From: Candidatus Omnitrophica bacterium UBA6215
GTDB lineage: Bacteria; Omnitrophota; Gorgyraeia; Pluralincolimonadales; Pluralincolimonadaceae
Assembly (NCBI GenBank): GCA_002421665.1
Contig: DISH01000003.1
Location: 39,291-103,290, forward strand
Direction: 5' to 3'
DNA length: 64,000 bases
Both the position numbers and the translations under genes were made by a program. Every line of letters starts with the position of its first letter. Positions within the stretch are counted from its first letter, which is position 1. Below the pieces are notes generated by a model. The model worked only from the letters and a program-made list of their open reading frames with translations. It did not search any database and was not told the DNA's origin. This document shows, one piece after another, positions 1 through 55,519 of this stretch.

Positions 1-1492
1 GCAAAAGAAGGGCCATAAGTTCCTTTCGGATACCGATACCGAGGTGCTGCCGCATCTTATAGAAGAATATTATGACGGGAACCTAGAAGAGGCGGTAAGG
101 AAAGCCCTTAAGGATGCGCAGGGTTCGTATGCTATAGCCGTAATTCACAGGTCGGAGCCGGGGAAACTTGTCGGCGCAAGGAACGGCAGCCCTCTTATCG
201 TCGGACTGGGCGAAGGGGAAAATTTCCTGGCATCAGATTGTCCTGCGATAATGGACAGGACCAGAAAGGTCATATTTGTCGACGATAAAGAGGTCATAAC
301 CCTGACCGACCGGACAGTATCCATTACCGACCTTGACGGCAGGAAAGCGCATAAAAAGGCCACTAAAATAGACTGGGATATATCGCAGGCGGAAAAAGGC
401 GGGTTTGCCCATTTTATGCTTAAAGAGATATATGAACAGCCTAAGGTCATACACAAGATGCTTTCAGCCCGTACGGATATTGCCAAATGCAAGGTAAGGC
501 TCGACGGGATAGGACTTACCTTGAAAGAGATCAGGGAATTCGACAATATAATGATATCGGCCTGCGGCACGGCGTATCATGCCGGGCTTGTGGGTGAATA
601 CCTCATAGAAAAATTTGCCGGCATACCGGTTGAAGTCGACGTATCCAGCGAGCTCAGGTACCGCGATCCGGTCTACTCACGCAAGACGCTGTTTATCGCG
701 GTCAGCCAATCGGGCGAGACGGCCGATACGCTTGCAGCTCTCAGGGAAGCCAGGAAGAAAGGCGTAAAGGCGGTATCTATATGCAACGTAGTGGGTTCTA
801 CCATAGTAAGGGAATCCGACGGAGTGATATATACGCATGCCGGTCCGGAGATAGGCGTTGCTTCCACGAAGGCGTACACGGCACAGGTTGCCATATTCAT
901 ACTGTTGGCCCTTTATATTGGCGCAGCAAGGGGGCGCATAGGCAGGAAGCAATTGAAGAAGATACTTGCCGAATTTGAGCAAGTACCGGGACATATGGAC
1001 GATATCCTTGACGGAGCCTCTGCAATAAAAAAATGCGCCGAGAAGTATTATATGCTCCCGTGTTTTATGTATATCGGCCGCGGGGTAAACTATCCGAACG
1101 CCTTCGAAGGCGCGCTGAAGCTGAAGGAGATCTCTTATATACACGCCGAAGGATACGGCGCCGGCGAAATGAAACACGGCCCGATTGCCCTGATAGAGAA
1201 GAACATGGCAGTGGTTGCGATAACCCCGCAATCGCATACTTATGACAAGATGATATCGAATATCCAGGAGATACGGGCAAGGGACGGAAAGGTCATTGCC
1301 ATAGCTACCGAGGGGGATGTTTCGGTAAGGAAGCACGTGACAGACGTCCTGTATATACCAAAGACCGAAGAAGCGCTCTCTCCGCTTTTGACAGTCCTGC
1401 CGCTGCAGCTTTTGGCGTATTATATAGCCGTATATAGAGGCAGGGATGTCGACCAGCCGAGGAATCTCGCTAAATCGGTAACGGTCGAATAA
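1..1492 (+). CDS. glmS: Glutamine--fructose-6-phosphate aminotransferase, 5'-truncated at the window edge (C-terminal part of the glutaminase domain plus both SIS domains).
   Basis: The in-frame translation runs from position 2. It contains the SETDTEV-like motif, two SIS-domain blocks and the characteristic C-terminal ...VTVE end. The listed start at 44 is an internal Met. Confidence 0.9.
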   Translation, partial: QKKGHKFLSDTDTEVLPHLIEEYYDGNLEEAVRKALKDAQGSYAIAVIHRSEPGKLVGARNGSPLIVGLGEGENFLASDCPAIMDRTRKVIFVDDKEVITLTDRTVSITDLDGRKAHKKATKIDWDISQAEKGGFAHFMLKEIYEQPKVIHKMLSARTDIAKCKVRLDGIGLTLKEIREFDNIMISACGTAYHAGLVGEYLIEKFAGIPVEVDVSSELRYRDPVYSRKTLFIAVSQSGETADTLAALREARKKGVKAVSICNVVGSTIVRESDGVIYTHAGPEIGVASTKAYTAQVAIFILLALYIGAARGRIGRKQLKKILAEFEQVPGHMDDILDGASAIKKCAEKYYMLPCFMYIGRGVNYPNAFEGALKLKEISYIHAEGYGAGEMKHGPIALIEKNMAVVAITPQSHTYDKMISNIQEIRARDGKVIAIATEGDVSVRKHVTDVLYIPKTEEALSPLLTVLPLQLLAYYIAVYRGRDVDQPRNLAKSVTVE

Positions 1493-1497
1493 GACAA

Positions 1498-2190
1498 ATG
1501 CCAAACGGCATACTCAATGTAGTAGCTACGCCGATAGGAAACCTCAAAGACATAACTCTTCGCGCAATAGACACGCTTAAAGAAGCTGACCTCATTGCGG
1601 CGGAGGATACCCGCCATACAAAAATACTGACAAGCCATTACGGGATAACCACTCCCCTGACAAGCTATTTCCAGCATAACCAGGTGGCCAAGGGCGAATA
1701 CCTGATAGGCCTGCTTAAAGAGGGGAAGAACATAGCGCTGGTTTCCGACGCGGGGACCCCCGGGATATCCGATCCCGGAGCCCATATAATCAGATTGGCC
1801 GTCAAGAACGGCATTAAGGTTGTAGGGGTGCCGGGTCCAAGCGCGGCAGTACTCGGGCTTGTCGTTTCCGGGTTCCCTACCGACAGGTTTGTTTTTGAGG
1901 GATTCCTTCCTAACAAATCAGCGGCCCGCAGGAAAAGGCTAATGGCGCTGAAGGATGAAGAGAGGACGGTCATACTTTATGAATCCCCCTACCGTATTTT
2001 AAAGGCTTTATATGATATACTTGACATATTGGGCGATATAAAGATATCCGTCCTGCGCGAACTTACCAAAAAATTCGAGGAAGTACTGCGGGGAAAAGCA
2101 AGCGAAGCGGTTGCGCATTTAGAGAAGAACACGCCTAAAGGAGAGTTCATTATAGTATTCAACCTGAAGGAAGGCGGTGAGAATGGCTAA
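1498..2190 (+). CDS. rsmI: 16S rRNA (cytidine1402-2'-O)-methyltransferase, tetrapyrrole-methylase fold.
   Basis: The N-terminus 'LNVVATPIGNLKDITLRAIDTLKEADLIAAEDTRHT' is the RsmI signature. Length is 230 aa. Confidence 0.8.
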   Translation: MPNGILNVVATPIGNLKDITLRAIDTLKEADLIAAEDTRHTKILTSHYGITTPLTSYFQHNQVAKGEYLIGLLKEGKNIALVSDAGTPGISDPGAHIIRLAVKNGIKVVGVPGPSAAVLGLVVSGFPTDRFVFEGFLPNKSAARRKRLMALKDEERTVILYESPYRILKALYDILDILGDIKISVLRELTKKFEEVLRGKASEAVAHLEKNTPKGEFIIVFNLKEGGENG

Positions 2191-2977
2191 GATACACCCT
2201 ACCGCGCTGGTAAGCAAAGGGGCCGAGCTTGGAGATGTTGAAATAGGCCCTTACGCCGTTATCGAGGACGGGGTTATCATAAGAAGCGGCACCTGTGTGC
2301 TTGCCCACGCCTATATAGCCGAAGGCACGACGATCGGGAAGGATTGCGAGATACATATGGGCGCCGTAGTGGGCCATGCGCCGCAGCACCTCAAGTACAA
2401 GGGAGCGAAGACATTCCTTAACATCGGCGACAGAAATATACTTAGGGAATATTGCAGCGTTCATCGCGGTTTCGAGGAAGGTTCTTCAACCCTGATAGGC
2501 GACGATAACCTTTTTATGGGTTTCTCCCATATCGCGCATGATTGCCGCATAGGGAACAGTACGGTTGTATGCAACGGCGCCCTTGTGGCCGGCCACGTCA
2601 CGGTAGACGACAAGGCTTTTATATCCGGGAATGTCACCATACACCAGTTCGTCAGGATAGGTTCCCTTGCGATGATCGGCGGGTTAGCCCGCGTTAATAA
2701 GGATGTCGTGCCGTATACCCTTATAGAAGGGGATTCCGAGGTATGTTCGCTGAACACGGTAGGAATACGGCGTTCCGGGGTAAGCAACGAGGCTGCCGTC
2801 CAGATAAAACAGGTATACAAGCTCCTTTACCGTTCAGGCCTTAATGTCACCCATGCCCTCGAAGAGATATCGAAGTCTGCCTTTTCTTCCGTAGAGGCAA
2901 GGAACATGGTCGATTTCGTAAAAAACTCTGAACGTGGGATATGCAAGCACAGGAAGATAGCCGCTAACGAGGACTAA
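2177..2977 (+). CDS. lpxA: Acyl-ACP--UDP-N-acetylglucosamine O-acyltransferase.
   Basis: Left-handed beta-helix hexapeptide repeats. The N-terminus 'IHPTALVSKGAELGDVEIGPYAVI' and the 266-aa length match LpxA. No other lpx genes are adjacent. Confidence 0.85.
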   Translation: MRMAKIHPTALVSKGAELGDVEIGPYAVIEDGVIIRSGTCVLAHAYIAEGTTIGKDCEIHMGAVVGHAPQHLKYKGAKTFLNIGDRNILREYCSVHRGFEEGSSTLIGDDNLFMGFSHIAHDCRIGNSTVVCNGALVAGHVTVDDKAFISGNVTIHQFVRIGSLAMIGGLARVNKDVVPYTLIEGDSEVCSLNTVGIRRSGVSNEAAVQIKQVYKLLYRSGLNVTHALEEISKSAFSSVEARNMVDFVKNSERGICKHRKIAANED

Positions 2978-2982
2978 CCGCC

Positions 2983-5088
2983 ATGGTCGAGCACCGTTCG
3001 GGTATTGAGCGCAGGCGATACATAAGGCTGAATACGGTATTTCCCGTCGAGCTCGAGGTCATCAGCCTCGACGACAAAGAAATATACTGCGAGTTCCAGC
3101 AGGCCTTTACCCGTGATGTAAGCGAGGGAGGCATGTGCCTTGAGGTGAACAACCTCAAGGACGAACTTGCCGAAAAGCTTAACAAAAAATCCGCAAAACT
3201 TCGCCTCCAGATAAATATGCCGTTTTCTGTCAGGCCGATAGATGCCATCGCGGAAGCGGCCTGGATAAAGAAGATCAGGGAACACCGTCCCAACAAATAT
3301 TTTATAGGCGTTTATTATGAGAAGATATCGGAGAAGGAAAGGAAGAGCATAGTAAACCACGCGCGTTTCCTTATGCTCAGGCCGTTCTTTGTCGCGGCGG
3401 CGATATTGCTGCTTGCGGTCGCGGTGGCGGTTACCAGGGTCGAGCTGCTGAAAAAGGAAGCTCTCCGGAAAGAGACAGAAAGAAAGCTTGCTCTTATTGA
3501 ATCCGAAAGGGTAAAGCTTGCCCAGGCGATGGAAGAGTTACGCCTCAATCGTACCGAGCTCGAAGCCAAGATAAGCTCATTTGAGCAGGAAAGGTCGGAC
3601 CTGGAAAAGAAGCTCGAGGCGGCAAAGACCGAGGCGCTCGCGAAACCCGAGGAGATAGCCCGGCTTGAAGAAGCCTTGGCGAAAGCGTCTGAGAGAACGG
3701 ACGAGCTTAATGCCGAGCTCGCCAAGGTTGTCGATTCCAAGAAGAACCTCGAGAGCCAGCTAAGGGTCCTCGAGGAGATAAAAGCTTCCAAGCCGGTAAA
3801 AGTTGTCCTTGCTGCCGGAGGGGTCGTGGTGGGAAAGGTCGTTCTGGAGACCTCGGATTCTGTCAGGGTAGAGGTCCCGACGGGGGTAATAACCCTTAAG
3901 AGGGACCTTATATCCTCCATGTCTACCCCGAGCGAAGAAGAGATAGCGGAATTGGCCAGGGAAAGGCTCAAACTTGAGCTCAGGGCCAAGGAAGTGGAAA
4001 AGAAGAGAGAGTTGGAGCGTAAGGCGGCCGAAGAAAGGGAGAAGACCGAAAAGGTAATATCAAAGAAGACCCCCGGAGAGCCCGAGCAATTGATATCCAG
4101 GACGATCCCGGAGAGGGGCGTAGCGATAAAGGATAACAGGATATATGCCGACGGTTCGTTATTCTTTATAAAAGGGATAGCTTACGGCGTAAGCGCGCCC
4201 GGCCTGCCGCCCGGGGTTGACGGCTGTTTCTCTAAGATCCCTTTGTCGGTTTTCGAAAACGACTTCAGGATGATGAAAGCCGCCGGGATCAATACAATAA
4301 GGACTTACGAACCGTTCCCGGACGCCTTGCTGGACCTTGCCGAGAAGTATGACCTCAAGATAATAGAACAGGTAGTCTATCCGTCCGCCTACACCGATTA
4401 CTCCTCCGATATCGAGCTTAAAGCGATGAAGAGGATGGCTACGGAGGCCGTAAGGAAACACAGGAACAGGAAGTGCATACTTATGTGGTCGATCTGGAAC
4501 GATGCCCCCTTCTGTTATGATGAGCCCGGCAACCCCGTTCCCCGTTACGGTTTCGAGAAAGTGAATAATTTCATGAGAGAGATATACCTTGCCGTTAAAT
4601 CGGTGGATAAGAGCCGTCCGGTCACGGCTGCCAACATCCTGAAGGTAAAAGGGTATGACCTGGGGTTCGATTTCCTGGATGTCATAGGCTGTAACGCTTA
4701 TATAGGCGGGCACGGGTTCAATTGGCGCGGCAGGGATGAAGCGGTGAGGGCCGTGAAGGAGATGAAGGAGATCTCAAAGAAGTATAAGAAGCCGATAATC
4801 ATAACCGAGACCGGATACAGTACTTTCGTAAAGAAAGATTCACAGGATAAGGCCCTGAAGACGCAGATCGAAAGCGCGGAAGACGACCTTGCCGGGATAG
4901 TCATCTTCGAATGGACAGACGAATGGTGGAAAGGCGGGAACCCGTCTGTCCAGGACAAGCACATAGAGGAGTACTGGGGCATCCTTACCTGGGACAGGAA
5001 GCCAAAACCGGGTTTCGAGATCGTTTCAAAGCTATTCAACTCTATACCCACCGATTCTCTGGGTTATAGGCCTTCCATAAAAAATTAA
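2983..5088 (+). CDS. PilZ-domain (c-di-GMP receptor) / transmembrane / long coiled-coil / C-terminal TIM-barrel glycoside-hydrolase-like fusion protein.
   Basis: PilZ motifs 'RRRYIR' (RxxxR) and 'DVSEGG' (DxSxxG) lie near the N-terminus. A hydrophobic helix 'FFVAAAILLLAVAVAV' follows. About 200 aa rich in E/K/L/A then form a coiled coil. The C-terminal domain carries 'WSIWND' and 'IIITETGYS' motifs typical of clan GH-A hydrolases. Confidence 0.6.
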   Translation: MVEHRSGIERRRYIRLNTVFPVELEVISLDDKEIYCEFQQAFTRDVSEGGMCLEVNNLKDELAEKLNKKSAKLRLQINMPFSVRPIDAIAEAAWIKKIREHRPNKYFIGVYYEKISEKERKSIVNHARFLMLRPFFVAAAILLLAVAVAVTRVELLKKEALRKETERKLALIESERVKLAQAMEELRLNRTELEAKISSFEQERSDLEKKLEAAKTEALAKPEEIARLEEALAKASERTDELNAELAKVVDSKKNLESQLRVLEEIKASKPVKVVLAAGGVVVGKVVLETSDSVRVEVPTGVITLKRDLISSMSTPSEEEIAELARERLKLELRAKEVEKKRELERKAAEEREKTEKVISKKTPGEPEQLISRTIPERGVAIKDNRIYADGSLFFIKGIAYGVSAPGLPPGVDGCFSKIPLSVFENDFRMMKAAGINTIRTYEPFPDALLDLAEKYDLKIIEQVVYPSAYTDYSSDIELKAMKRMATEAVRKHRNRKCILMWSIWNDAPFCYDEPGNPVPRYGFEKVNNFMREIYLAVKSVDKSRPVTAANILKVKGYDLGFDFLDVIGCNAYIGGHGFNWRGRDEAVRAVKEMKEISKKYKKPIIITETGYSTFVKKDSQDKALKTQIESAEDDLAGIVIFEWTDEWWKGGNPSVQDKHIEEYWGILTWDRKPKPGFEIVSKLFNSIPTDSLGYRPSIKN

Positions 5089-5097
5089 AAACGGGTC

Positions 5098-5126
5098 TTG
5101 ACAAACAGGCGATCGCGTGATATCCT
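5098..5126 (+). promoter_or_regulatory. Putative sigma70 promoter of the pyr operon (TTGACA, 17-nt spacer, TATCCT).
   Basis: A -35 consensus hexamer sits at 5098-5103 and a -10-like hexamer at 5121-5126, upstream of the pyrR leader. Confidence 0.3.
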
Positions 5127-24634: not shown

Positions 24635-25768
24635 TTACTTGACCGATTCCAGGATAAGCCTTTCGTTCGCTACGTCAAGCTTGATGTTGAAATTATTCAT
24701 GAAGGACATGCCCAAAAGCCCGTCTATTCCGGTCCCGGGAGGGTTGTCGCTTACAGCGGCAGGCACGTCATATACCGTTGAGTTCCCGATCCTCACGCTC
24801 TTTATGATTATTACCTTGCTTTTTATTACGCTCCCGTCCGCAAGCGTGAATTTTACGTCTTCTATCGTCTCGTTCGGATTTGTCTCGATCCTTTCCGCGA
24901 CCTCTTTTGATATAAGCACCGTAGAGGCCCCCGTATCTACGGCCAGGGTGCACGTTGTCCCGCCGTTCAATACGGCTTTTACCGTCATGCCATAAGCTGT
25001 CTTCGTAAGAGGCACTGTATCCCTGTTAAGCCCTTTCTCTATATCCGATATGGTTTTATCCGTTATCTTGGCATAGAGGGCCTCATCCTGGGTCAGGCCC
25101 CTTCCGCTCAATTCCTCAAGCTTCTTTTCGAAAAAGATGCGGAAGTCGCCTACGCCGTTGCCGTAATTCGTCACGGCTTTCCAGTAAGCGCGTTCGCGTT
25201 CAGGCAATTCTAAGTTGGTCGAGTCGATCTCATCTACAAGCGATTCGATCTCGGTATGCAGCATGTTCATTTGAGAGACATACTTGTTGTATCGTTTGAC
25301 GTCGCTTGCGGGGTCCATGTCCTTTATCTTCCTGTTCAACCCGTCGAAATCGGCCCGCAGGCTGCTGTATTTCTTGCGTTTCTCGCCGAAGGATTCCTTC
25401 ATTTTTTCGAGGGAAGTTTTTATGGAGTCCGTTTGCCTGCGTTCCTCGATCAATTTCCTTAATCGTTTTGACGTCTCCTCAAAAGCTTCGGGCACGAGAG
25501 CGCCCCTTTCTATCGCTTTTTTTCTGAAGCCGCTTTCCAGAGCGGCGTTCTCTTTTTCCGAGGCTCTTTCTACGGATTCCACCTGGGTCTTGGCTATCTT
25601 CATAGTGCCGGTCCCGATAAGGAGGGTTATAGATGAAGCATCCTCGTTCTTTATTATTCCCTTGAGGGCACCGCTATTCTTCAGTTTCACGGTATCGGGC
25701 ATCGCTGCCGCGGGATACAAAGCAGCAAGGCATAAGATCACGTGGATAAGGACAATCCTGGTATTCAT
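24635..25768 (-). CDS. Secreted coiled-coil protein with a C-terminal retropepsin-like (clan AA) aspartic protease domain.
   Basis: N-terminal signal peptide. About 200 aa of E/K-rich coiled coil follow. The C-terminal domain carries the 'LAVDTGAS' D-T-G-A active-site motif and a 'GIDGLLGMSF' flap-like region. Confidence 0.6.
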   Translation of the reverse strand: MNTRIVLIHVILCLAALYPAAAMPDTVKLKNSGALKGIIKNEDASSITLLIGTGTMKIAKTQVESVERASEKENAALESGFRKKAIERGALVPEAFEETSKRLRKLIEERRQTDSIKTSLEKMKESFGEKRKKYSSLRADFDGLNRKIKDMDPASDVKRYNKYVSQMNMLHTEIESLVDEIDSTNLELPERERAYWKAVTNYGNGVGDFRIFFEKKLEELSGRGLTQDEALYAKITDKTISDIEKGLNRDTVPLTKTAYGMTVKAVLNGGTTCTLAVDTGASTVLISKEVAERIETNPNETIEDVKFTLADGSVIKSKVIIIKSVRIGNSTVYDVPAAVSDNPPGTGIDGLLGMSFMNNFNIKLDVANERLILESVK

Positions 25769-41946: not shown

Positions 41947-42893
41947 TCGACTGGATCGCCGGAGTCTCACCCACAGGAAAAGGCATATTACTTGTCTTGG
42001 CTTTTCTTGCGTTAATAAGCTTTTTGGTATGGATCCTTGCCATGTCAAAAAGAGACAGCAATGAACTGGTTGCCAGGACAAGATCGTGGTGGGTTATGGC
42101 GGCGATTTTTATGATAGCAGTTGTTTCCGGGAACAGGCACTTTTCCGTAATGTTCTTCTGCTTTTTAAGTTTGTGGGCTACAAAAGAATATCTTTCGGTT
42201 GTAGATATCCCAATCTGGCACAGACCGGTCTTGATCTGGAGCTATGTTATAATAGTGATGCAGTATTATTGGATCGCTATTGATTGGTATGGCATGTTTC
42301 TGGTATTCATTCCCATATTCGGGTTCCTGTTTATTTCAACAAGGGTAATGTTGACCAACGAGCCGGATTATTTTCTGGGTTCATCGGCAAAGATATTATG
42401 GGGTCTTCTCGCTTTTGGACTTGGGCTTAGTCACCTTGGCTACCTTATTAATATACCCGGTTACCATGGTTTGCGAATTGACGGAAGGTCTTTACTGCTT
42501 TTTCTTGTCGTGACGACGGAATTTAACGATGTTGCCCAATATTTTTGGGGCAAACTTTTCGGAAAGCATAAGATCCTCCCGGTTATCAGTCCGAAAAAGA
42601 CCTGGGAAGGGTTTATCGGCGGGGTCGTTACCGCCATAGCTGTTTGCTTTCTTTTTAAGTTTTTGACCCCCTTTAAAGCAGTTTATGAGATAGTTTTTGT
42701 GTCCTTAGCCATTTCGATCAGCGGGTTTTTTGGGGATGTCGTGATGTCGGCTGTAAAGAGAGATATGAGCGTGAAGGATTTTGGAACCGCAATACCAGGG
42801 CACGGGGGTATTTTAGACCGGCTGGATTCAATATCCTTTACAGCCCCGATATTCTTCCATATTATACGTTATTGGTATTGGCCGTCTTGCTGA
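41943..42893 (+). CDS. CTP-dependent lipid cytidylyltransferase of the CdsA/CarS family (phosphatidate cytidylyltransferase-like).
   Basis: 'SPKKTWEGFIGGV' matches the CdsA signature (SPxKTxEG). Multi-TM. It overlaps the preceding gene by 4 nt. Confidence 0.7.
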   Translation: MIDWIAGVSPTGKGILLVLAFLALISFLVWILAMSKRDSNELVARTRSWWVMAAIFMIAVVSGNRHFSVMFFCFLSLWATKEYLSVVDIPIWHRPVLIWSYVIIVMQYYWIAIDWYGMFLVFIPIFGFLFISTRVMLTNEPDYFLGSSAKILWGLLAFGLGLSHLGYLINIPGYHGLRIDGRSLLLFLVVTTEFNDVAQYFWGKLFGKHKILPVISPKKTWEGFIGGVVTAIAVCFLFKFLTPFKAVYEIVFVSLAISISGFFGDVVMSAVKRDMSVKDFGTAIPGHGGILDRLDSISFTAPIFFHIIRYWYWPSC

Positions 42894-42913
42894 GACGGCC
42901 GCGGAGAAAGAAG

Positions 42914-44395
42914 ATGATTAAAGATGAGTTTTTGTTGTCTAGTGTAGGGGACAGGGAGGCCGCATGCGCGGTCGCGCGGAAGTCGGCGATAAATATCCCG
43001 GCTTATAGGGAGTATCTAAGGAGAAATCAGTTTTCCGGCAAGATATCGCGTTCAAATTTTGAAGAGCTCCCCCTTACGGATAAAGAAAATTACCTTATGA
43101 AAGCCCCGTATTTTTCATTATTGCCGCCGGAGAATTTGGATGATGTACACTTTGTGTTTAAAAGCTCGGGTTCGTCAGGTAAGTCTTTCTATTGGCCTCA
43201 ACTAAAGCAGCAATACAAATTATTTGACCTGCTGTTTGAAGATACCCTTAGCAAGAATTTTTCAATCCGCAAGAAAAGGACCGCGATAATCGTCGGGTTA
43301 TCATTGGGGAGCTGGATCGGCGGCGACCTTATTTCGTGGGCCGCGAAGAACGTTGCGTTGCGTTCGAATTACTCCCTTACTGTCTTCAGTCCCGGGAACC
43401 AGCATGAAGAGATACTCGAGATAATTAACGGAATAAACAGGAAGGTTGACCAGATAATACTTTTTGTATGTCCTTCTACGATTGGACATCTTGCCTTGCT
43501 TGCGGAAGAGAAAAATTTTTCTGGCATATTTAACAAGTTGCGATTTCTGGTTATTGGAGAGCCATTCAGCGAAAATTTTAGATTACGTCTTCGGGCAAAG
43601 TGCAAAGTAAAGCCTCCGGAAGTTGTCCTGACGTCCGTATACGGGTCTGCCGATACGGGGATAATAGGGATCGAATCAAATGCTGTCGCATTCTTCAGGG
43701 AGCTTCTATCGAGATACGGGCAATTGCGCAGGTATTACGGTTTTGAGAATTCTTTGCCTAATTTTTTCAACCTCTCCGTAAAAGAGGCTTATATTGAAAT
43801 GGTAAAAGGAGAGCTGGTTTTTACGGCTTGGCAAGGGTTACCGCTTATGCGGTATAATCTGCACGATAACGGCAGCCTCATCGATTGGAACACCGTAAAA
43901 ACGGCGTTAAAAGACATTAATCTCGACGGAGAGTCCGAGAAATTAAAGAACCATATAATCAAGGATAGATCAAATCCTATTGTTATCGCCGTAGGCGGAC
44001 GAAGCGACGGCACTATATATTTATGCGGTACCAACATTTCAGAATCAATGCTTAGCAATGCCATAAACGACAAATCGTTGCAAAAGACCGTAACGGGGCA
44101 TTTTTATGTAAGCGTCTTGGAACGTAATGGCAGGCAGCAGTTGAAATGGGAAATAGAGCTTAAGCCCGGGATTCGTCCTGATAAAAAGACCGAAAGCGTT
44201 ATCTATGCTAAGCTGATTGAATTGCTGGGAAAGCTCCAGCCGGAGTTTATGGCCGATTACAATAGCATATATTCAAAATGGGACGATAACGAATCTGCGA
44301 GGATATTCCAATTTAAATTTTATCCTTGGCCGCAGTTATCAAGAAGACCTGATTCAGCGAAACACAGGATTATTGCATTGACAGAGGATAAATAA
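42914..44395 (+). CDS. PaaK-like / GH3-like adenylate-forming enzyme (phenylacetate-CoA ligase / F390 synthetase family), divergent.
   Basis: 'PLTDKENYL' and the P-loop-like 'FKSSGSSGKSFYW' are present. Start chosen at 'MIKDEF', after the CdsA-like stop. Confidence 0.6.
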   Translation: MIKDEFLLSSVGDREAACAVARKSAINIPAYREYLRRNQFSGKISRSNFEELPLTDKENYLMKAPYFSLLPPENLDDVHFVFKSSGSSGKSFYWPQLKQQYKLFDLLFEDTLSKNFSIRKKRTAIIVGLSLGSWIGGDLISWAAKNVALRSNYSLTVFSPGNQHEEILEIINGINRKVDQIILFVCPSTIGHLALLAEEKNFSGIFNKLRFLVIGEPFSENFRLRLRAKCKVKPPEVVLTSVYGSADTGIIGIESNAVAFFRELLSRYGQLRRYYGFENSLPNFFNLSVKEAYIEMVKGELVFTAWQGLPLMRYNLHDNGSLIDWNTVKTALKDINLDGESEKLKNHIIKDRSNPIVIAVGGRSDGTIYLCGTNISESMLSNAINDKSLQKTVTGHFYVSVLERNGRQQLKWEIELKPGIRPDKKTESVIYAKLIELLGKLQPEFMADYNSIYSKWDDNESARIFQFKFYPWPQLSRRPDSAKHRIIALTEDK

Positions 44396-44396
44396 T

Positions 44397-44993
44397 ATGA
44401 AAAGCAAAGGAATCGGGATATTTGAAAGGGTTTTTTCGTCGCGAGTTTCCTTAATCATATCGTTTTTATGGGGCTTCGCGGAGGCGACCTTATTTTTTAT
44501 TATTCCCGATGTTTTTTTAGGAGCGGTAGCTTTATTTTCGCCAATGTGTGGAATATTGTGCTGTATTATGAGTATCCTGGGGGCTATGCTTGGCGGAGGC
44601 CTTATGTATCTTTTATCTTGCAGGATCCCTCAAACTATGCTTGCCTTGCTAACAAAAGTTCCGGGAATTACAGATTCTATGATAACGCAGGTGGGTATCA
44701 ATTACAAGATGTATGGCCTTAAGTCCATTTTTTTGGCCCCGTGGGCCGGAGTTCCTTACAAGATTTACGCCGTTCAAGCCGGTATTCATGGTATAGACCG
44801 TACGGCTTTTATTTTGGCCACTATTCCGGCCCGTTTAGAGCGGTTTATTTTGGTTATTGTGGTCATGATGTTTCTGGGTTATCGATTTAGAAGGTCTGTT
44901 TTGCGCAGGCCCGGATATTGGATGACCGCGTACGCTGTTTTCTGGATAGCGTGCTACGTGGCATATGCAATTTATTTAAATGGCAGGACTTAA
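44397..44993 (+). CDS. Hypothetical integral membrane protein (5-6 TM) embedded in the lipid cluster.
   Basis: Hydrophobic helices throughout. It starts 1 nt after the preceding stop. Confidence 0.4.
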   Translation: MKSKGIGIFERVFSSRVSLIISFLWGFAEATLFFIIPDVFLGAVALFSPMCGILCCIMSILGAMLGGGLMYLLSCRIPQTMLALLTKVPGITDSMITQVGINYKMYGLKSIFLAPWAGVPYKIYAVQAGIHGIDRTAFILATIPARLERFILVIVVMMFLGYRFRRSVLRRPGYWMTAYAVFWIACYVAYAIYLNGRT

Positions 44994-45010
44994 TTGAATA
45001 TTGGAAATCA

Positions 45011-46324
45011 ATGCGTTCACTAAACTTTTCTGAATCGGTTATGTTAGGCTTACGCTTTTATCCTGCAATACGCAGCATAAGCCGTATGCCATTTGCTTCC
45101 AGGGATTCCATCGAAGGATATCAGCTGTCCAGGATTAAAAAACTTGTTACATTTGCTTACGATAATGTGCCATTTTACAGGAAGAAATATGATGAAGCGG
45201 GTATCCGTCCCGGAGACATAAGGACATTTCATGATTTTAAACGCTTACCGACGGTGACAAAAAAGGATATTATAGAAAATTATCCGCATAACATACTTGC
45301 TTCCGGTACCGATCTAAACCGTTGCATAATATCCAGGAGTTCAGGTTCTTCCGGAGCCATTGTAAATGTTGTCTATGGAACAGGGGCCCTTATCGAATAC
45401 ATATTGGCAGGTTTTAGGATTTATTCTATGGTGATGGATTACAAGCCTTGGCATAAACAGGTTTATATCTATACTTCTCCGTACCCGGTTAACGGGGTAT
45501 TTGGCGCTTATCGTTTATATTTTATACCGACAGTCAACAAGGTTAATGATACGATAGCTGAGCTAAGGAGGATCAGGCCGGATCTTTTGGTTTGTTATCC
45601 GTCCCACTTGCGTCAATTGAGCCACAGCATTTCTCGCGAAGACCTAAAGTTGATAAAACCTCTTGCTATATCAGTGAATTCTGAAATGTCAACTCAGGGG
45701 GAAAGGGATGAACTCGCCGGTTTTTTTGGGTGCGGGGTTTATGATGAATATTCAACCGAGGAATTGACGAGGGTTGCTTCGCAGTGTAAGGCTAAAAATT
45801 ATCATATATTTGAGGATATTAATTATATTGAAATATTGAATGATCGGGGGGCGGATGCAAAAGATGGGGAAGTCGGAGAGATAGTAGGGACAAATCTGCA
45901 TAATTTTACCATGCCCTTTATAAGATACAAGCAGTCCGATATGGCATCCGTATCTTCTGGGGCCTGTTCATGCGGAAGAAACTTTAAGTTATTAAACGGG
46001 TTAAAGGGCAGAAAAAACGATGAATTTATTCTGCCCGGAGGAAAAACCCTTTCTTCCGGGTTTCTGCTGGATGCTTCTTATAATTTGATCCTTGAATTTG
46101 AGAATGCAATAAAAGATTATTGTATTATTCAAGAATCGAGGAATGATATAGTAATGGAGATTATCGCAGGGGATAGCTATTCGGAAGAAAAAAGGGTGCG
46201 GATGGAAGACGCTCTCAGTAAGATAATAGGCGAAGGAGTCGCCGTTAAGGTTGCAAGGGTAGAAGAGCTTTACAAGACAAAATCAGGCAAGCAAAATCCA
46301 ATAATTTCTAAAGTCTCCAGATAA
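45011..46324 (+). CDS. PaaK-like adenylate-forming enzyme (phenylacetate-CoA ligase / CapK / F390 synthetase family).
   Basis: 'FHDFKRLPTVTKKDIIENYP' and 'SRSSGSSGAIVNV' are PaaK-family N-domain motifs. Start chosen at 'MRSLNF'. Confidence 0.7.
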   Translation: MRSLNFSESVMLGLRFYPAIRSISRMPFASRDSIEGYQLSRIKKLVTFAYDNVPFYRKKYDEAGIRPGDIRTFHDFKRLPTVTKKDIIENYPHNILASGTDLNRCIISRSSGSSGAIVNVVYGTGALIEYILAGFRIYSMVMDYKPWHKQVYIYTSPYPVNGVFGAYRLYFIPTVNKVNDTIAELRRIRPDLLVCYPSHLRQLSHSISREDLKLIKPLAISVNSEMSTQGERDELAGFFGCGVYDEYSTEELTRVASQCKAKNYHIFEDINYIEILNDRGADAKDGEVGEIVGTNLHNFTMPFIRYKQSDMASVSSGACSCGRNFKLLNGLKGRKNDEFILPGGKTLSSGFLLDASYNLILEFENAIKDYCIIQESRNDIVMEIIAGDSYSEEKRVRMEDALSKIIGEGVAVKVARVEELYKTKSGKQNPIISKVSR

Positions 46325-46357: not shown

Positions 46358-49300
46358 ATGAAAACTTGCGGTATCTGCGTCGGGGCATCCAACCTGACGT
46401 CGGTGGAGTTGCACAAGGACAAGGAAGGCCTGCGTGTCGGCAGGGTTATTAGTTTGCCGCACGAGGGAAATATATTCGGCTCGCTGGAACAGGCCGTGCG
46501 CAGGGCGCAGGAGGATGGCTACGGGAGTATCGCCGTGACCGGGCGCAAGGTAGGCGCCTCAATCTCGCTGCCGAGATTATCGGAACCGGAAGCGGTAGAG
46601 GAGGCCCTCAAGTTCCTGAACGCCGGTAACAGGAAAAGATACGATGCGGTAGTGAGCGTCGGCGCGGAACTTTTCATAGCTTATCTGCTGGACAGGGAGG
46701 GCAATATCTCCGGGGTCAGGACGCTTAACAAATGCGCGTCCGGGACCGGGGAATTCTTCATGCAGCAGCTCAGGAGGATGAATATATCCCTGGACGATGT
46801 CGTCAAGCTCGCCTCGTCAGAAAAATCATACAGGCTTTCGAGCAGGTGCTCGGTCTTTTGTAAAAGCGACTGTACCCACGCCCTTAACAAGGGCCAGGAT
46901 ATAAGCGAGATTCTTTCCGGTCTCTGCGAAATGATGTCCAGAAAGGTCATGGAACTTCTGGTCAACCTCCCAAAAGAGAATGTCATGCTCATAGGAGGGG
47001 TTGCCCTTAACCCCCGTGTGGTTAATTTTCTCAGGAAGGACATCCGTTCCGTACATGTCCCTAAAGAAGCCGCTTATTTCGAGGCGCTTGGCGCAGCATT
47101 GTGGGCGATGGAACATAATACCGATACGACGAACACGAAACTGCTGCAGGACAAACGCCATCCGTCGAGATTCTCGAACCTGCCTCCGCTTAAGTCCGCT
47201 CTCCCGCTGGTTGATTTCAAGGGCGCGTGGGAAAAGAAGGAATTTTCCGAAGGAGACGTATGCATAATCGGATTGGATGTGGGGTCAACGACGACGAAAG
47301 CCGTCTTGATGAGGGAGCGCGACGATGCCGTTATCGATTCTATATATCTCAGGACCAACGGCAACCCAGTTGAGGCTTCCAGGAATTGTTACAGGGCCCT
47401 GCAGAAAAATCTTAAGAAGGACGTAAAGATAACAGGCATAGGAGTCACCGGTTCAGGCAGGCATATAGCTGCCCTGCACGCCATGACGGACGGCGTGATA
47501 AATGAGATCATCGCCCACGCGCGCGCCGCGGCGTATTTCGACCCCGAGGTTGATACGATATTCGAGATAGGCGGCCAGGACGCGAAATATACGCATATAG
47601 AGAATATGGTAGCCTGCGATTACGCGATGAACGAGGCTTGTTCGGCCGGTACGGGCTCATTCCTTGAGGAGTCATGCAAAGAGACCCTCGGGGTGGAATT
47701 AAAAGACATTGAACCTCAGGCGATGAAAGGCGAGAACCCGCCCAACTTCAATGACCAGTGCGCCGCTTTTATAAGCAGCGATATCAAGACCGCCTCATAC
47801 GAGGGGCTCAAGAAAGAGGATATCGTCGCCGGGCTCGTATATTCCATCTGCATGAACTACAGTAACCGCGTAAAAGGAAACAGGCTTGTAGGCGACAAAG
47901 TGTTGATGCAAGGCGGGGTCTGCTACAACAAGGCGGTTCCCTTTGCTATGGCTTCTCTCTTGGGGAAAAAGATAGTGGTTCCTCCGGAGCCCGGCCTCAT
48001 GGGGGCCTTCGGCGTAGCGCTTGAGGTCAAGGACAAGATAAAGAACGGCCTGCTCAAAAGAGGCGAATACCGGCTTGCCGATCTTATAGGGAGAGAAGTT
48101 AAATACTGTGACAGCTTCAGGTGTAAGGGCGGCGCCGAGAAATGCGATCGGGGGTGCAGTATCCTGCGCATAGAGATAGAGGGTAAGATATATCTTTTCG
48201 GAGGTTCATGCAACAGGTATTACAATATCAACCATTCGGTAGCGGTAGAGGACGGCTTGCTAAATCTTGTCAAAGTGCGCCAAGAACAGCTTTTTAACGT
48301 GGGAGGGGCGCCGGTACCGCGTCCGGGCGCCAAGAGCGTAGGTATCAGCAAATCGTTCCTGTCGCATACTTTCTTCCCGCTGTACCACGATTTCTTCTCG
48401 GCCCTTGGGATGAAGGTCGTGGTTTCCGATACCGTTACGGATTACGGCATTCAGCACAAAAGGGCGGCTTTTTGTTACCCGGCCGAAATAGCCCACGGAA
48501 TGTTCCACAACCTCATCGAGAAAGAGCTTGATTATATATTCCTGCCCCAGGTGCTTGAGATAAAATCCAAGAGGGCGCCGCAGTCAAGGAAAGAACAGCA
48601 GTCCACGTGCGTCATCCTGCAAAGCGAGCCGTATTACCTGCGCGATACGTTCAAGAAAGCGAATAAAGGAAAGCTACTGATACCGGTGGTTGATTTTTCA
48701 AATGGTATACGGAAGGCTCAGGATACTTTTGTCGAGATGGCCGTAAAAATGAGTTTCAACGGCGGGGACGCGGCAACGGCTTACAAGGCCGCGTGCAGGA
48801 AACAGGAGGATTTTACCTCCAGGATGAAACAATACGGCAGGGGATGTCTCGAAGAACTCAGAAAGGACCCGTCAAGGACAGCGGTAGTCCTCCTGGGCAG
48901 GCCGTATAACAGTTTCGCGGCCGAAGCGAACATGGCGATACCGGACAAGTTTTCTTCCCGCGGGGTTACCATAATACCGTTTGACTGCCTTCCTTATGAA
49001 GGCGAATCCGATGACAGGAACATGTATTGGGCGAGCGGCCAGATGATACTTAAGGCCGCGAGGTTCGTAAAGAAGCACCCGCAGCTATACGCCGTTTTCG
49101 TTACTAATTTCAGTTGCGGCCCGGATTCCTTTATCGTGGGACAGGTAAGGGATATGATGGACGAAAAACCAATGCTTATCCTCGAGATAGACAGCCATAC
49201 CGCGGATGCCGGGGTCAATACCAGGATAGAAGCGTTCCTCGATATTGTGGAAAGGTCGAGGCGGGTGGCAGGCATCCCGCAAAAAGCCGCGACGCATTTC

Positions 49301-55189: not shown

Positions 55190-55284
55190 AATTCCGTCGA
55201 TATATGGCATACTTTAATTGACCGAAAGGGGCAGTCCGGCCGGCGGTCGGACTTGACGCTGGGTCCGAAAATCCCAAAGCGGGC

Positions 55285-55385
55285 CCACCCCCATCAGGGC
55301 CGAAAGGGCGTGACGCAAAACCCCGGGCCTAAACCGAGGCCATTCCAGGTGGCACGGCAGGGCGGCGAGGTTACCGAAACCGGAG
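55285..55385 (+). ncRNA. Candidate cyclic-di-GMP-I (GEMM) riboswitch aptamer.
   Basis: GC-rich non-coding leader with GEMM-like blocks: 'CAGGGCC-GAAA-GGGCGUGACGCAAAACC' (P2 with GNRA loop), 'CCGGGCCUAAACC', and '...GGCGGCGAGGUUACCGA'. These match the Vc2-type consensus (GACGCAAAGCC / GGCCUAAACC / GGGGUUACCGA). Confidence 0.55.
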
Positions 55386-55461
55386 AAAAGGTCAAAGGCG
55401 TAGGTTGCCTCCCTTTGTCGGTCGATGCAGGATTTCCGGTTGCAGTAGAAGCAGGAGGTTC

Positions 55462-55500
55462 AAAATGGCAAGCGCCATTGCGCTTGCCATTTTGTTTTCC
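55462..55500 (+). terminator. Intrinsic terminator, the likely riboswitch expression platform, 20 nt upstream of the patatin gene start.
   Basis: Perfect 14-bp hairpin AAAATGGCAAGCGC-catt-GCGCTTGCCATTTT, followed by GTTTTCC. Confidence 0.65.
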
Positions 55501-55519
55501 AGCCTATATAATAAAAGAG

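Follow-up and report, generated by a model that had tools for sequence, protein, structure and literature searches.

Near the start of the window, by which we mean the whole 64,000-nucleotide stretch of Omnitrophota DNA analysed here, lies a gene whose product joins a PilZ domain to a glycosidase-type barrel (the target; Table 1). Its reading frame begins with ATG, 5 nt past the lpxA stop, and has the sequence GAGGA 9 nt upstream. The three preceding genes were named glmS, rsmI and lpxA from their translations and from Pfam tags on a syntenic locus (L003). Because the gaps are so short and the + strand has no terminator-like site at the junctions from glmS to the target, the target is probably co-transcribed with these genes. 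Since this operon includes lpxA, the cell should have an outer membrane and therefore be diderm. The order glmS-rsmI-lpxA-target-pyrR-pyrB is kept in 11 species-level loci and represents one of three synteny types around the target family; in the others the gene stands with tilS and ftsH or among catabolic glycoside hydrolase (GH) family genes. A sigma-70-like match is placed 3' of the target stop and upstream of pyrR. The target's neighbours in the window are housekeeping genes, and the remaining 59 kb, when surveyed, yielded no GGDEF, EAL or HD-GYP domain, no glycan synthase and no further PilZ domain or barrel; both observations count against the mechanism proposed below.

Table 1. Features of the target and its surroundings. 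Positions are those of the window; residues are numbered on the target protein.
Feature	Position	Strand	Remarks
Upstream genes glmS (44-1492), rsmI (1498-2190), lpxA (2177-2977)	44..2977	+	Gaps of at most 5 nt
Whole open reading frame, 701 aa	2983..5088	+	PilZ - TM - coiled coil - beta-domain - charged helix - (beta/alpha)8 glycosidase
PilZ domain, aa 9-126	3007..3360	+	Pfam PF07238; predicted cytoplasmic c-di-GMP receptor
RxxxR motif, R11-R-Y-I-R15	3013..3027	+	R11 and R15 invariant in 43/43 module-bearing proteins
[D/N]xSxxG motif, D45-V-S47-E-G-G50	3115..3132	+	D/N45 in 43/43; G50 in 43/43; S47 in 32/43
Single transmembrane helix, aa ~130-153	3370..3441	+	Kyte-Doolittle 19-residue mean 2.5
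Periplasmic heptad coiled coil, aa 155-268	3445..3786	+	Constant register about 164-262
Small five-strand beta-domain, aa 272-315 (44 aa)	3796..3927	+	AF2 strands 272-314
Charged E/R/K-rich helix, aa 318-356 (39 aa)	3934..4050	+	AF2 helix 318-356
(beta/alpha)8 glycosidase barrel, aa 379-690	4117..5052	+	GH157/GH2-related 'N-D' clade
N506-D507, acid/base position, end of strand 4, Asp for Glu	4498..4503	+	Opposite N-E in alignments with LaGH157 and human GUS
E609, nucleophile position, end of strand 7	4807..4809	+	Counterpart of E540 in human GUS and of the LaGH157 E224A residue
Sigma-70-like promoter match	5098..5126	+	TTGACA-17-TATCCT, 10/12 matches, extended -10 TG; consensus match only

A fusion of this kind might arise from a chimeric assembly, or from two genes mis-called as one. 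We found no support for such an artefact and regard its probability as negligible: the reading frame is uninterrupted, and the same architecture is shared by more than 40 distinct proteins, with identities down to 37%, and by 16 species-level genomes that independent studies assembled. Public data also contain a protein identical to the target, from an Omnitrophota MAG (P0001).

The original prediction of a PilZ domain with RxxxR and DxSxGG motifs holds. Residues 9-126 matched PF07238 with 25.8 bits (E 1.4e-5) against a curated cut-off of 22.5, homologues scored up to 37.7 bits, and both motifs are present. When modelled alone, the domain adopted a PilZ fold (pLDDT 83, pTM 0.73), in which the six-stranded beta-barrel is followed by the C-terminal alpha-helix. 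The best structural matches of this model were c-di-GMP-binding PilZ domains: Foldseek listed MotI (5vx6, E 4e-5), the BcsA PilZ domain, YcgR (5y6g), MrkH, PA4608, PlzA and PP4397 at the top, with TM-scores of 0.5-0.65. Searched against the PDB, the sequence profile gave only a weak match to YpfA/MotI (E 0.03), and the identity of the domain was settled by the fold comparison. The domain is probably able to bind c-di-GMP; what counts against this reading is that S47 of the second motif is replaced, by G or N, in about a quarter of the module-bearing proteins.

Directly after the PilZ domain comes a single strongly hydrophobic segment, the one membrane helix that had been expected, and it is hydrophobic in all aligned homologues. 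In the AF2 model the helix runs unbroken from residue 117 to 216. The following stalk has 70% hydrophobic residues at its a/d positions, compared with 50% in shuffled sequences (z 4.7), and holds the same heptad frame over 14 consecutive windows; a distant clade carries stalk insertions of 7 and 4 residues. A helical hairpin of the membrane-fusion-protein type is disfavoured by a heptad frame that continues uninterrupted across the kink at 217-221. This favours one long coiled coil, which is probably dimeric. The region had first been described as about 200 aa of coiled coil. Roughly 100 residues of it are indeed a heptad coiled coil, whereas the remainder consists of the beta-domain and of the charged helix, where the heptad signal is absent (z 1.0). 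This second helix is probably a single-alpha-helix spacer. The beta-domain motif recurs behind the signal peptide of secreted paralogues, and in one of these (P0052) it gave a weak match to NF047433.

The positive-inside rule gives no orientation, both flanks of the membrane segment being highly charged. Since PilZ is a cytoplasmic receptor domain and signal peptides are present on the barrel's non-fused, secreted paralogues, we conclude with high confidence that the architecture is as drawn in Table 1 and that, as originally proposed, PilZ faces the cytoplasm and the enzyme lies outside the inner membrane.

The barrel is the best-conserved part of the protein (0.73 versus 0.51 for the stalk). 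The suggestion that the C-terminal 330 or so residues form a clan GH-A-like domain was borne out by significant matches to glycoside hydrolases. The Pfam model of the GH2 TIM barrel (PF02836) matched residues 420-660 with 50.2 bits (E 2.7e-13, cut-off 21). A single-sequence phmmer search of the PDB retrieved LaGH157 (9fz9, E 1.5e-12) and human GUS (E 3.5e-12), and Foldseek placed the barrel at E ~1e-15 to both GH2 GUS and GH157, with GH2 beta-glucuronidases as the top matches. In the eight-stranded AF2 model, D507 directly follows strand 499-506 and E609 lies within strand 605-610. The two carboxylates of the modelled barrel thus stand where strands 4 and 7 end, as in clan GH-A (the 4/7 superfamily), that on strand 4 being Asp rather than Glu.

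Placement of the barrel in a family is less simple. Like LaGH157, its best single-sequence match in the PDB, and BcellWH2_01931, the target has a stand-alone GH2-type barrel without the N-terminal domains of GH2, and its nucleophile aligns with that of GH157. The name LaGH157 was taken from Foldseek entry titles; literature searches with the PDB codes 9FZ9, 9G5G and 9G4N and with 'LaGH157' found no paper. The two proteins also share a C-terminal signature, D[EG]WWK[GA]G...EE[WYH]xG, which reads DEWWKGG...EEYWG in the target and DGWWKGG...EEWFG in LaGH157 and is defined here rather than in a published family description. However, identity in the structural alignment is only about 21%, GH157 has N-E where the target has W-N-D-A-P-F, and the enzymes of GH157 lack PilZ and are secreted or located at the surface. 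In relation to GH2, the target matches the TIM-barrel model and lacks the sugar-binding and immunoglobulin-like domains, for which Pfam gave no match; its barrel is preceded instead by PilZ, the membrane helix, the coiled coil and the beta-domain. We considered, and rejected, assignment to GH157. The clade profile scored 67.5 and 65.1 bits with GUS and 63.5 bits with LaGH157, and the acid/base residue differs; for contrast, a true GH157 at one related locus (L002) scores E 5e-64. On these profiles the barrels appear to form a distinct clade, about equally far from GH2 beta-glucuronidases and GH157 endo-beta-1,3-glucanases.

The target clade departs from the Asn-Glu acid/base pair of GH2 and GH157, having Asp throughout, and keeps the nucleophile Glu. 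D507 occurs in all 41 barrel-bearing fusion proteins and in each of the aligned secreted paralogues with at least 36% identity, E609 is invariant in our alignment (A1), and R440, N506, D507, Y573, E609 and W644 are conserved among the barrels. Given an Asp that does not vary in the clade or among its secreted paralogues, and retention of the nucleophile Glu, the barrel is predicted to be an active glycosidase rather than a binding module, a call that we consider likely.

The N-D pair had initially been read as a possible mark of a binding or lyase-like variant. The barrel would then be a pseudo-enzyme, its hydrolytic activity abolished by the Glu-to-Asp exchange. Acid/base Glu-to-Asp mutants of retaining clan GH-A enzymes are generally known to be strongly impaired in most cases, and N-E is retained by more distant relatives as well as by two neighbouring paralogues in L002. 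In contrast, D507, like the nucleophile and the rest of the clan GH-A catalytic constellation, stays invariant from 100% to 36% identity, secreted paralogues included, and we know of no polysaccharide lyases among (beta/alpha)8 GH-A barrels. A domain-swapped positional orthologue moreover carries a GH16 head with an intact catalytic motif (ExDxxE), and the GH2 enzyme CsxA, an exo-beta-D-glucosaminidase, is active with an Asp acid/base (PMC6566704), the only such exception known in GH2. We therefore consider the pseudo-enzyme reading very unlikely. The parallel with CsxA is partial, since CsxA has S-D rather than N-D and acts on chitosan. In an active target barrel, the Asp could point to a different substrate, such as the amino sugar of CsxA, or to transglycosylation.

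With the profile scores almost equal for GH2 beta-glucuronidases and GH157, inference of the substrate relies mainly on genomic context and on the domain swap. At locus L004, in the slot glmS-rsmI-lpxA-X, stands a protein 65% identical to the target over residues 3-384, with a laminarinase-type GH16 head in which the motif EIDIME is intact. In a clade with 37-39% identity to the target, the gene adjoins the true GH157 of L002, of which L023 has a 70%-identical copy. Further genes of L002 encode a GH161 beta-1,3-glucan phosphorylase (E 1e-222) and sugar ABC permeases, and one is GlgC-like. GH157 is a family of endo-beta-1,3-glucanases (PMC10229575) and GH161 one of beta-1,3-glucan phosphorylases (PMC6484121), and LaGH157, the best solved sequence relative, was crystallised with laminari-oligosaccharides. 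Given the GH157 relative, the GH16 swap in the positional orthologue and the distant clade in a GH157/GH161 cluster, beta-1,3-glucan or its oligosaccharides are the predicted substrate, a prediction that we hold to be about evenly poised.

The swap in L004 is not the only one. The same PilZ-TM-coiled-coil module also bears GH26, GH42-like, PF10091/DUF3131 and GH76-like heads, which fill dozens of clusters whose every named member belongs to Omnitrophota. Its commonest head, the C-terminal domain of P0045, gave only faint hints of GH15, GH76 and an alpha-alpha-toroid and has no sequence relative in the PDB. The module thus carries at least six glycosidase-type heads besides the target barrel, at least seven kinds in all, which strengthens the originally suggested link between c-di-GMP and extracytoplasmic polysaccharide processing. 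A GAF plus HD-GYP-type gene lies directly upstream of one module-bearing gene and about 7 kb upstream of another. Minimal PilZ-TM proteins without any periplasmic part occur in this phylum and in the same neighbourhood (tilS-ftsH-folP), which suggests an independent role or partner for the PilZ-TM unit.

In the mechanism that we propose, the target would sit in the inner membrane of a diderm Omnitrophota bacterium as a type-II (N-in) protein, and its canonical PilZ domain would bind c-di-GMP in the cytoplasm. The C-terminal helix of PilZ would pass unbroken into the membrane helix and on into a periplasmic coiled coil of about 100 residues, beyond which the beta-domain and the charged spacer helix would carry a retaining glycosidase with Asp507 as acid/base and Glu609 as nucleophile. 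Occupancy by c-di-GMP would alter the packing of the membrane-crossing helix, and with it how the periplasmic head is posed, how far it reaches or how it oligomerises, so that cleavage or remodelling of periplasmic glucan would track the c-di-GMP level of the cell. The heads borne by this stalk are unrelated in fold, which makes control through position or oligomeric state a likelier mechanism than allostery at the active site. The explanation taken whole, an N-in PilZ-stalk-glycosidase under inside-out control, falls a little short of an even chance. Control by c-di-GMP from the inside is plausible and is put forward more tentatively still, the direction and mechanism of coupling being the least secure step.

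A signal could travel either way along the rigid unbroken helix that links PilZ, across the membrane, to the coiled coil. The protein might thus be a sensor working outside-in, in which engagement of a glycan by the head would alter, via the coiled coil, how tightly PilZ binds c-di-GMP or a target in the cytoplasm, for instance the motility or pilus machinery. Varied heads would then feed varied glycan specificities into one output, and many small PilZ proteins of Omnitrophota are found near carbohydrate transporters and glycosyl hydrolases. However, PilZ is generally known as a receptor or adaptor domain rather than one that generates signals, and a pure sensor would not need the complete catalytic sets that both the barrel and the GH16 variant keep. 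We judge this reversed flow of information to be unlikely.

Our literature search found no paper describing a PilZ-TM-coiled-coil glycosidase module. It is possible, although doubtful, that Omnitrophota possess an undescribed modular class of c-di-GMP effectors, a chassis with swappable GH heads through which the messenger would switch periplasmic glycan depolymerisation from the inside out; such a class may possibly be linked to the lifestyle, host-dependent or predatory, that has been proposed for the phylum.

Among known proteins, Alg44, the alginate co-polymerase of Pseudomonas aeruginosa, resembles the target in having an N-terminal cytoplasmic canonical PilZ domain, a single membrane helix and a periplasmic helical region, in that order. 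Cytoplasmic binding of c-di-GMP to Alg44 controls a polysaccharide process of the envelope, and the C-terminal helix of its PilZ domain dimerises. Unlike the target, Alg44 has a periplasmic domain of the HlyD/membrane-fusion type, no catalytic head, and a glycosyltransferase partner, Alg8, in the alginate operon. The likeness raises the prospect that PilZ merely docks the target, in a c-di-GMP-dependent manner, on an inner-membrane partner such as a glucan synthase and secretion complex or an uptake system, while the enzyme itself is unregulated. The stalk would then position a constitutively active glycosidase on the path of the polymer, as BcsZ, PslG and AlgL are positioned on self-made exopolysaccharides. 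Besides the order of domains in Alg44, such a scaffold would suit the minimal PilZ-TM proteins, according to which this unit can act alone, the interchange of heads with unrelated folds, and a GT2 gene 0.7 kb downstream of a GH26 variant in L042. In contrast, no synthase or secretion gene is conserved beside the target in any of the three synteny types, neither Pfam nor NCBIfam detected an HlyD-family domain in it, and the context in L002 and L023 consists of catabolic, not biosynthetic, enzyme families. We regard the scaffold as rather improbable.

Inside-out control finds a precedent in the LapD/LapG system of Pseudomonas fluorescens, in which a cytoplasmic c-di-GMP receptor signals across the inner membrane to control periplasmic hydrolysis. 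LapD senses the messenger with a degenerate EAL domain, relays the signal through HAMP and sequesters a separate protease with its periplasmic domain; the target would instead sense with PilZ and relay through a coiled coil, and its putative hydrolase is fused to the receptor in one chain.

PslG, BcsZ, PelA and AlgL are periplasmic or inner-membrane-anchored glycan-cleaving enzymes of polysaccharide pathways controlled by c-di-GMP, and PslG, which itself belongs to clan GH-A, has a membrane anchor at its N-terminus. To our knowledge, none of the four bears a c-di-GMP receptor in the same polypeptide, and all are encoded within biosynthetic operons.

The known polysaccharide outputs of c-di-GMP concern synthesis, through BcsA, Alg44 and PelD, and LapD adds the proteolysis of an adhesin. 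If our explanation is true, breakdown or remodelling of polysaccharide would join them as a direct post-translational target of the messenger. One module with at least seven glycosidase-type heads would amount to a natural 'domain-swap experiment' on how a signal crosses via a coiled coil, and would offer a concrete in vitro handle on signalling in an uncultured phylum. A sizeable clade beside GH157 and GH2 with Asp in place of the acid/base Glu matters for CAZy classification and for enzyme mechanism. Fusion of PilZ in cis to a carbohydrate-active catalytic domain is shared with BcsA, whose PilZ domain is among the best structural matches of ours. In BcsA, however, PilZ and the glycosyltransferase are both cytoplasmic and PilZ gates the active site directly, whereas in the target the two are predicted to be separated by the membrane and the stalk.

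The protein encoded at 2983-5088 of the window (Table) combines a PilZ domain at residues 9-126 (Pfam; 25.8 bits against a curated cut-off of 22.5), a single strongly hydrophobic segment at residues ~130-153 and a GH2-type TIM barrel at residues 420-660 (Pfam; 50.2 bits against a cut-off of 21), and the architecture of the original prediction thus proved correct. An identical public protein from a Candidatus Omnitrophota MAG is annotated simply as 'glycoside hydrolase family 2 TIM barrel-domain containing protein'.

Table. Positions of the target gene, other genes of the window and related loci
Feature	Position	Strand	Remarks
Target ORF	window 2983-5088	+	701 aa; uninterrupted; ATG start; GAGGA Shine-Dalgarno-like sequence
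Retropepsin-like aspartyl protease domain protein	window 24635-25768	-	377 aa; PF13650/PF13975
Three consecutive ORFs	window 42872-46324	+	507/198/468 aa; no Pfam match at E <= 1e-5
BcrAD/BadFG-type activase fusion	window 46358-50644		1428 aa
Cyclic-nucleotide-binding, AAA_31 and patatin-like phospholipase domain protein	window 55253-57574	+	773 aa
GAF-HD gene	L001:1879-3012		
Cluster of beta-1,3-glucan enzyme-family genes	L002:2384-18876		
P0039 gene	L004:6444-8309		
P0140 gene	L005:10001-10471		minimal PilZ-TM protein
GAF + HD-GYP-type gene (region)	L041:3835-9978		PF13487/PF01966
Platform gene	L041:10001-11977		P0045-like
Platform gene	L042:10001-12160		

Both c-di-GMP-binding motifs are canonical in the target (R11-R-Y-I-R15 and D45-V-S47-E-G-G50). 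R11, R15, D/N45 and G50 are invariant in all 43 proteins carrying the same N-terminal module, while at position 47 Ser is found in 32 of them and Gly or Asn in the other 11. The PilZ sequence profile gave a weak PDB match (MotI/YpfA, E 0.03). The PilZ fold itself, on which the original prediction had staked its case, was present in a monomeric AlphaFold2 model of residues 1-128 (pLDDT 83, pTM 0.73), whose best structural matches were MotI and the PilZ domains of BcsA, YcgR, MrkH, PA4608, PlzA and PP4397, several of these structures having been solved with c-di-GMP bound. The domain is a putative c-di-GMP binder.

In a full-length monomeric model (pLDDT 75.6), one unbroken helix (117-216) is predicted to run from the C-terminal helix of PilZ across the membrane segment, followed by a helix at 222-268, a five-strand beta-domain at 272-314, a helix at 318-356 and the barrel. 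The best heptad frame is identical over 14 consecutive windows (residues ~164-262), passing through the predicted kink at 217-221; a/d positions there are 70% hydrophobic versus 50% in shuffled sequences (z 4.7), and in the clade that has diverged furthest, the insertions in this stretch measure exactly 7 and 4 residues. These features fit one long coiled coil, ~150 Å if fully extended. With no heptad periodicity (z 1.0), the E/R/K-rich helix 318-356 resembles a single-alpha-helix spacer. Hence, of the roughly 200 residues of coiled coil initially proposed, the heptad portion at ~164-262 stands, but the region comprises three elements, among them the beta-domain and the non-heptad helix.

The charges flanking the membrane helix are uninformative on topology. 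PilZ, however, is a cytoplasmic receptor domain, the target N-terminus carries no signal peptide, and close barrel paralogues without PilZ do start with signal peptides, from which we infer an N-in/C-out orientation. With lpxA directly upstream implying an outer membrane, the head should be periplasmic.

The target starts 5 nt past the stop codon of the preceding gene, and gaps between glmS, rsmI and lpxA on its 5' side are likewise at most 5 nt. A scan of the window revealed no plus-strand terminator-like site at the junctions of these four genes, and a promoter-like site directly follows the target stop codon, which together suggest that the target is co-transcribed with glmS, rsmI and lpxA. 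The remaining window is of housekeeping character (pyr operon, ATP synthase, complex I, lipid metabolism) and contains no GGDEF, EAL, HD-GYP or glycan synthase gene and no further copy of PilZ or barrel. It also includes a gene for a retropepsin-like protein between the ATP synthase and complex I clusters, the 773-aa multidomain protein, which could be a cNMP-regulated phospholipase, and the three ORFs without Pfam match, which are flanked by a CDP-diglyceride synthase-like gene and the activase fusion.

In one-genome-per-species GTDB data the full-length fusion occurred in 16 loci, all of them in MAGs or bins of Omnitrophota whose labels are generic and assigned automatically, the closest being 96% identical to the target. 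Three types of synteny were found: glmS-rsmI-lpxA-target-pyrR-pyrB in 11 loci (at least 64% identity), tilS-target-ftsH-folP in a 45% identity clade (L001, L021, L022), and a carbohydrate cluster in a 37-39% identity clade. The contigs of L007, L012, L021, L024 and L029 have the gene in a typical Omnitrophota version, with its synteny, under the TPA label 'uncultured Planctomycetia bacterium'; automated binning probably assigned the wrong taxon here.

In a search with the single sequence, the relative of known structure that scored best was 9fz9 (E 1.5e-12), followed by human beta-glucuronidase (GUS; E 3.5e-12). Foldseek entries 9fz9, 9g5g and 9g4n are titled 'Glycoside Hydrolase Family 157 from Labilibaculum antarcticum' (LaGH157), and the target shares with this enzyme a C-terminal signature (DEWWKGG...EEYWG versus DGWWKGG...EEWFG). 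With a profile of the target's own clade, GH2 beta-glucuronidases reached 67.5 and 65.1 bits, much the same as LaGH157 at 63.5 bits. For comparison, a true GH157 from a related locus scores E 5e-64. The target lacks the sugar-binding and Ig-like domains that GH2 members have at the N-terminus (Pfam). We therefore treat the barrel as a putative separate clan GH-A clade adjoining GH157 and GH2 and belonging to neither. More distant relatives of the barrel (25-29% identity) form tandem pairs in Verrucomicrobiota/Chthoniobacterales MAGs (L032, L033, L035, L036); the cultured Oligoflexus tunisiensis Shr3 (L037) has one copy and could be a tractable source of a related enzyme.

Eight strands make up the modelled barrel. 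N506-D507 stands at the end of strand 4 (499-506) and E609 within strand 7 (605-610), a predicted 4/7 arrangement. In each of three independent alignments, N506-D507 matches the N-E acid/base position of LaGH157 and GUS, and E609 coincides with their nucleophile. Asp occupies position 507 in all 41 barrel-bearing fusion proteins and in every paralogue at least 36% identical, many with a signal peptide only, always within W-N-D-[AMVG]-P-F; relatives at ~24% identity, LaGH157 and GUS read N-E. Conservation extends to R440, Y573, E609, W644, D646, W648 and E662-E663, and within the fusion it is highest in the barrel. The GH2 exo-beta-D-glucosaminidase CsxA is a documented case of an Asp acid/base (PMC6566704). 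This combination favours an active retaining enzyme over the binding or lyase-like variant that the N-D reading had originally suggested, and makes a pseudo-enzyme less likely, as the Asp is invariant alongside the other catalytic residues and CsxA is active with it. The enzyme may have an altered specificity or act in transglycosylation.

Three independent lines point to beta-1,3-glucan as the substrate. The first is the relationship to GH157, whose members are endo-beta-1,3-glucanases (PMC10229575); the LaGH157 structures were crystallised with laminaribiose and laminaritriose. The second is a domain swap that occurred naturally. Across residues 3-384, P0039 and P0044, the latter truncated, share 65% identity with the target (E 1e-153); both end in a GH16 domain (PF00722, E 5e-23) with an intact EIDIME catalytic motif. 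The P0039 gene occupies the same glmS-rsmI-lpxA-X slot as the target, and P0039 is thus a positional orthologue in which a laminarinase-type GH16 head replaces the barrel. The replacement looks recent, because the N-terminal part of P0039 is nearly identical to that of the barrel-carrying P0015. The third line is genome context: the neighbours of the fusion gene in L002 and L023, which represent the 37-39% identity clade, are a true GH157, a GH157/GH72-like gene (both N-E) and a GH42-like gene. L002 adds a GH161 phosphorylase (E 1e-222), a GlgC-like nucleotidyltransferase, two ABC sugar permeases and an MFS transporter; GH161 enzymes are beta-1,3-glucan phosphorylases occurring in carbohydrate-degradation clusters (PMC6484121). 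Within this Omnitrophota cluster of beta-1,3-glucan enzyme families, of which L023 shows the GH157, GH157-like, fusion and GH42-like genes, the PilZ fusion reads N-D. The L002 cluster also includes a TPR protein and a repeat protein that, judged from sequence, seems beta-propeller-like.

When 1.84 billion cluster representatives were searched with a profile, ~5 clusters of full-length fusions were obtained, together with ~50 representatives of 450-950 aa (within P0185-P0296) matching the PilZ-TM-coiled-coil part only. A PilZ score was obtained in 44 of 50 examined, and a simple hydropathy scan placed a single TM helix at ~115-147 in 44 of 50. The largest head group (41 proteins, P0045-like) gave faint matches to GH76 and alpha-alpha-toroids; other heads were PF10091 'Glycoamylase' or DUF3131 (E 6e-69), GH26 (E 1e-12) and GH42-like. 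All members with a source name came from Omnitrophota. Directly upstream of the L041 platform gene lies a GAF + HD-GYP-type gene, three small stand-alone PilZ genes lie within 7 kb, and in L001 a similar GAF-HD gene precedes the fusion gene by ~7 kb; the GAF-HD genes are candidate c-di-GMP phosphodiesterases. Omnitrophota giant genes have small pilZ, carbohydrate transporter and glycosyl hydrolase genes downstream and GGDEF domains inside (preprint).

The functional model drawn from sequence, predicted structure and context builds on the canonical PilZ, the unbroken PilZ-TM-coiled-coil helix with its register kept, the conserved catalytic head and the interchangeability of heads. Binding of c-di-GMP would reposition PilZ on its C-terminal helix, and the movement would be passed through a pair of TM and coiled-coil helices to the periplasmic side. 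Since heads of unrelated fold (TIM barrel, GH16 jelly roll, probable alpha/alpha toroids) sit on one stalk, a signal that acts on the pose, reach or oligomeric state of the head seems more probable than dedicated allostery directed at its active site. An outside-in sensor is less likely. The chief competing model is an Alg44-like scaffold, with PilZ serving to dock the protein onto a partner and with a constitutively active head; it gains from the existence of minimal ~156-aa proteins with a related PilZ and a C-terminal TM helix alone, namely P0140, which adjoins tilS-ftsH-folP-cdaA, the neighbourhood of the fusion in L001, L021 and L022, and about 30 others.

As fusion partners of PilZ, a comparative survey of domain architectures names HlyD, cellulose synthase, REC, GGDEF, EAL, HD-GYP, MCP and CheC, and no hydrolase. 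We found no description of a PilZ-glycoside hydrolase fusion in the literature on PilZ with glycoside hydrolases or on Omnitrophota, our coverage of which was incomplete. The individual parts are known; the literature searched describes neither their combination nor the platform nor the N-D clade. The nearest architectural analogue is Alg44, which likewise joins PilZ, a TM helix and a periplasmic helical domain, although its HlyD-type periplasmic part and synthase partner are both absent from the target. Inside-out c-di-GMP signalling is exemplified by LapD, the nearest mechanistic analogue, whose receptor differs from that of the target and whose protease is a separate protein.
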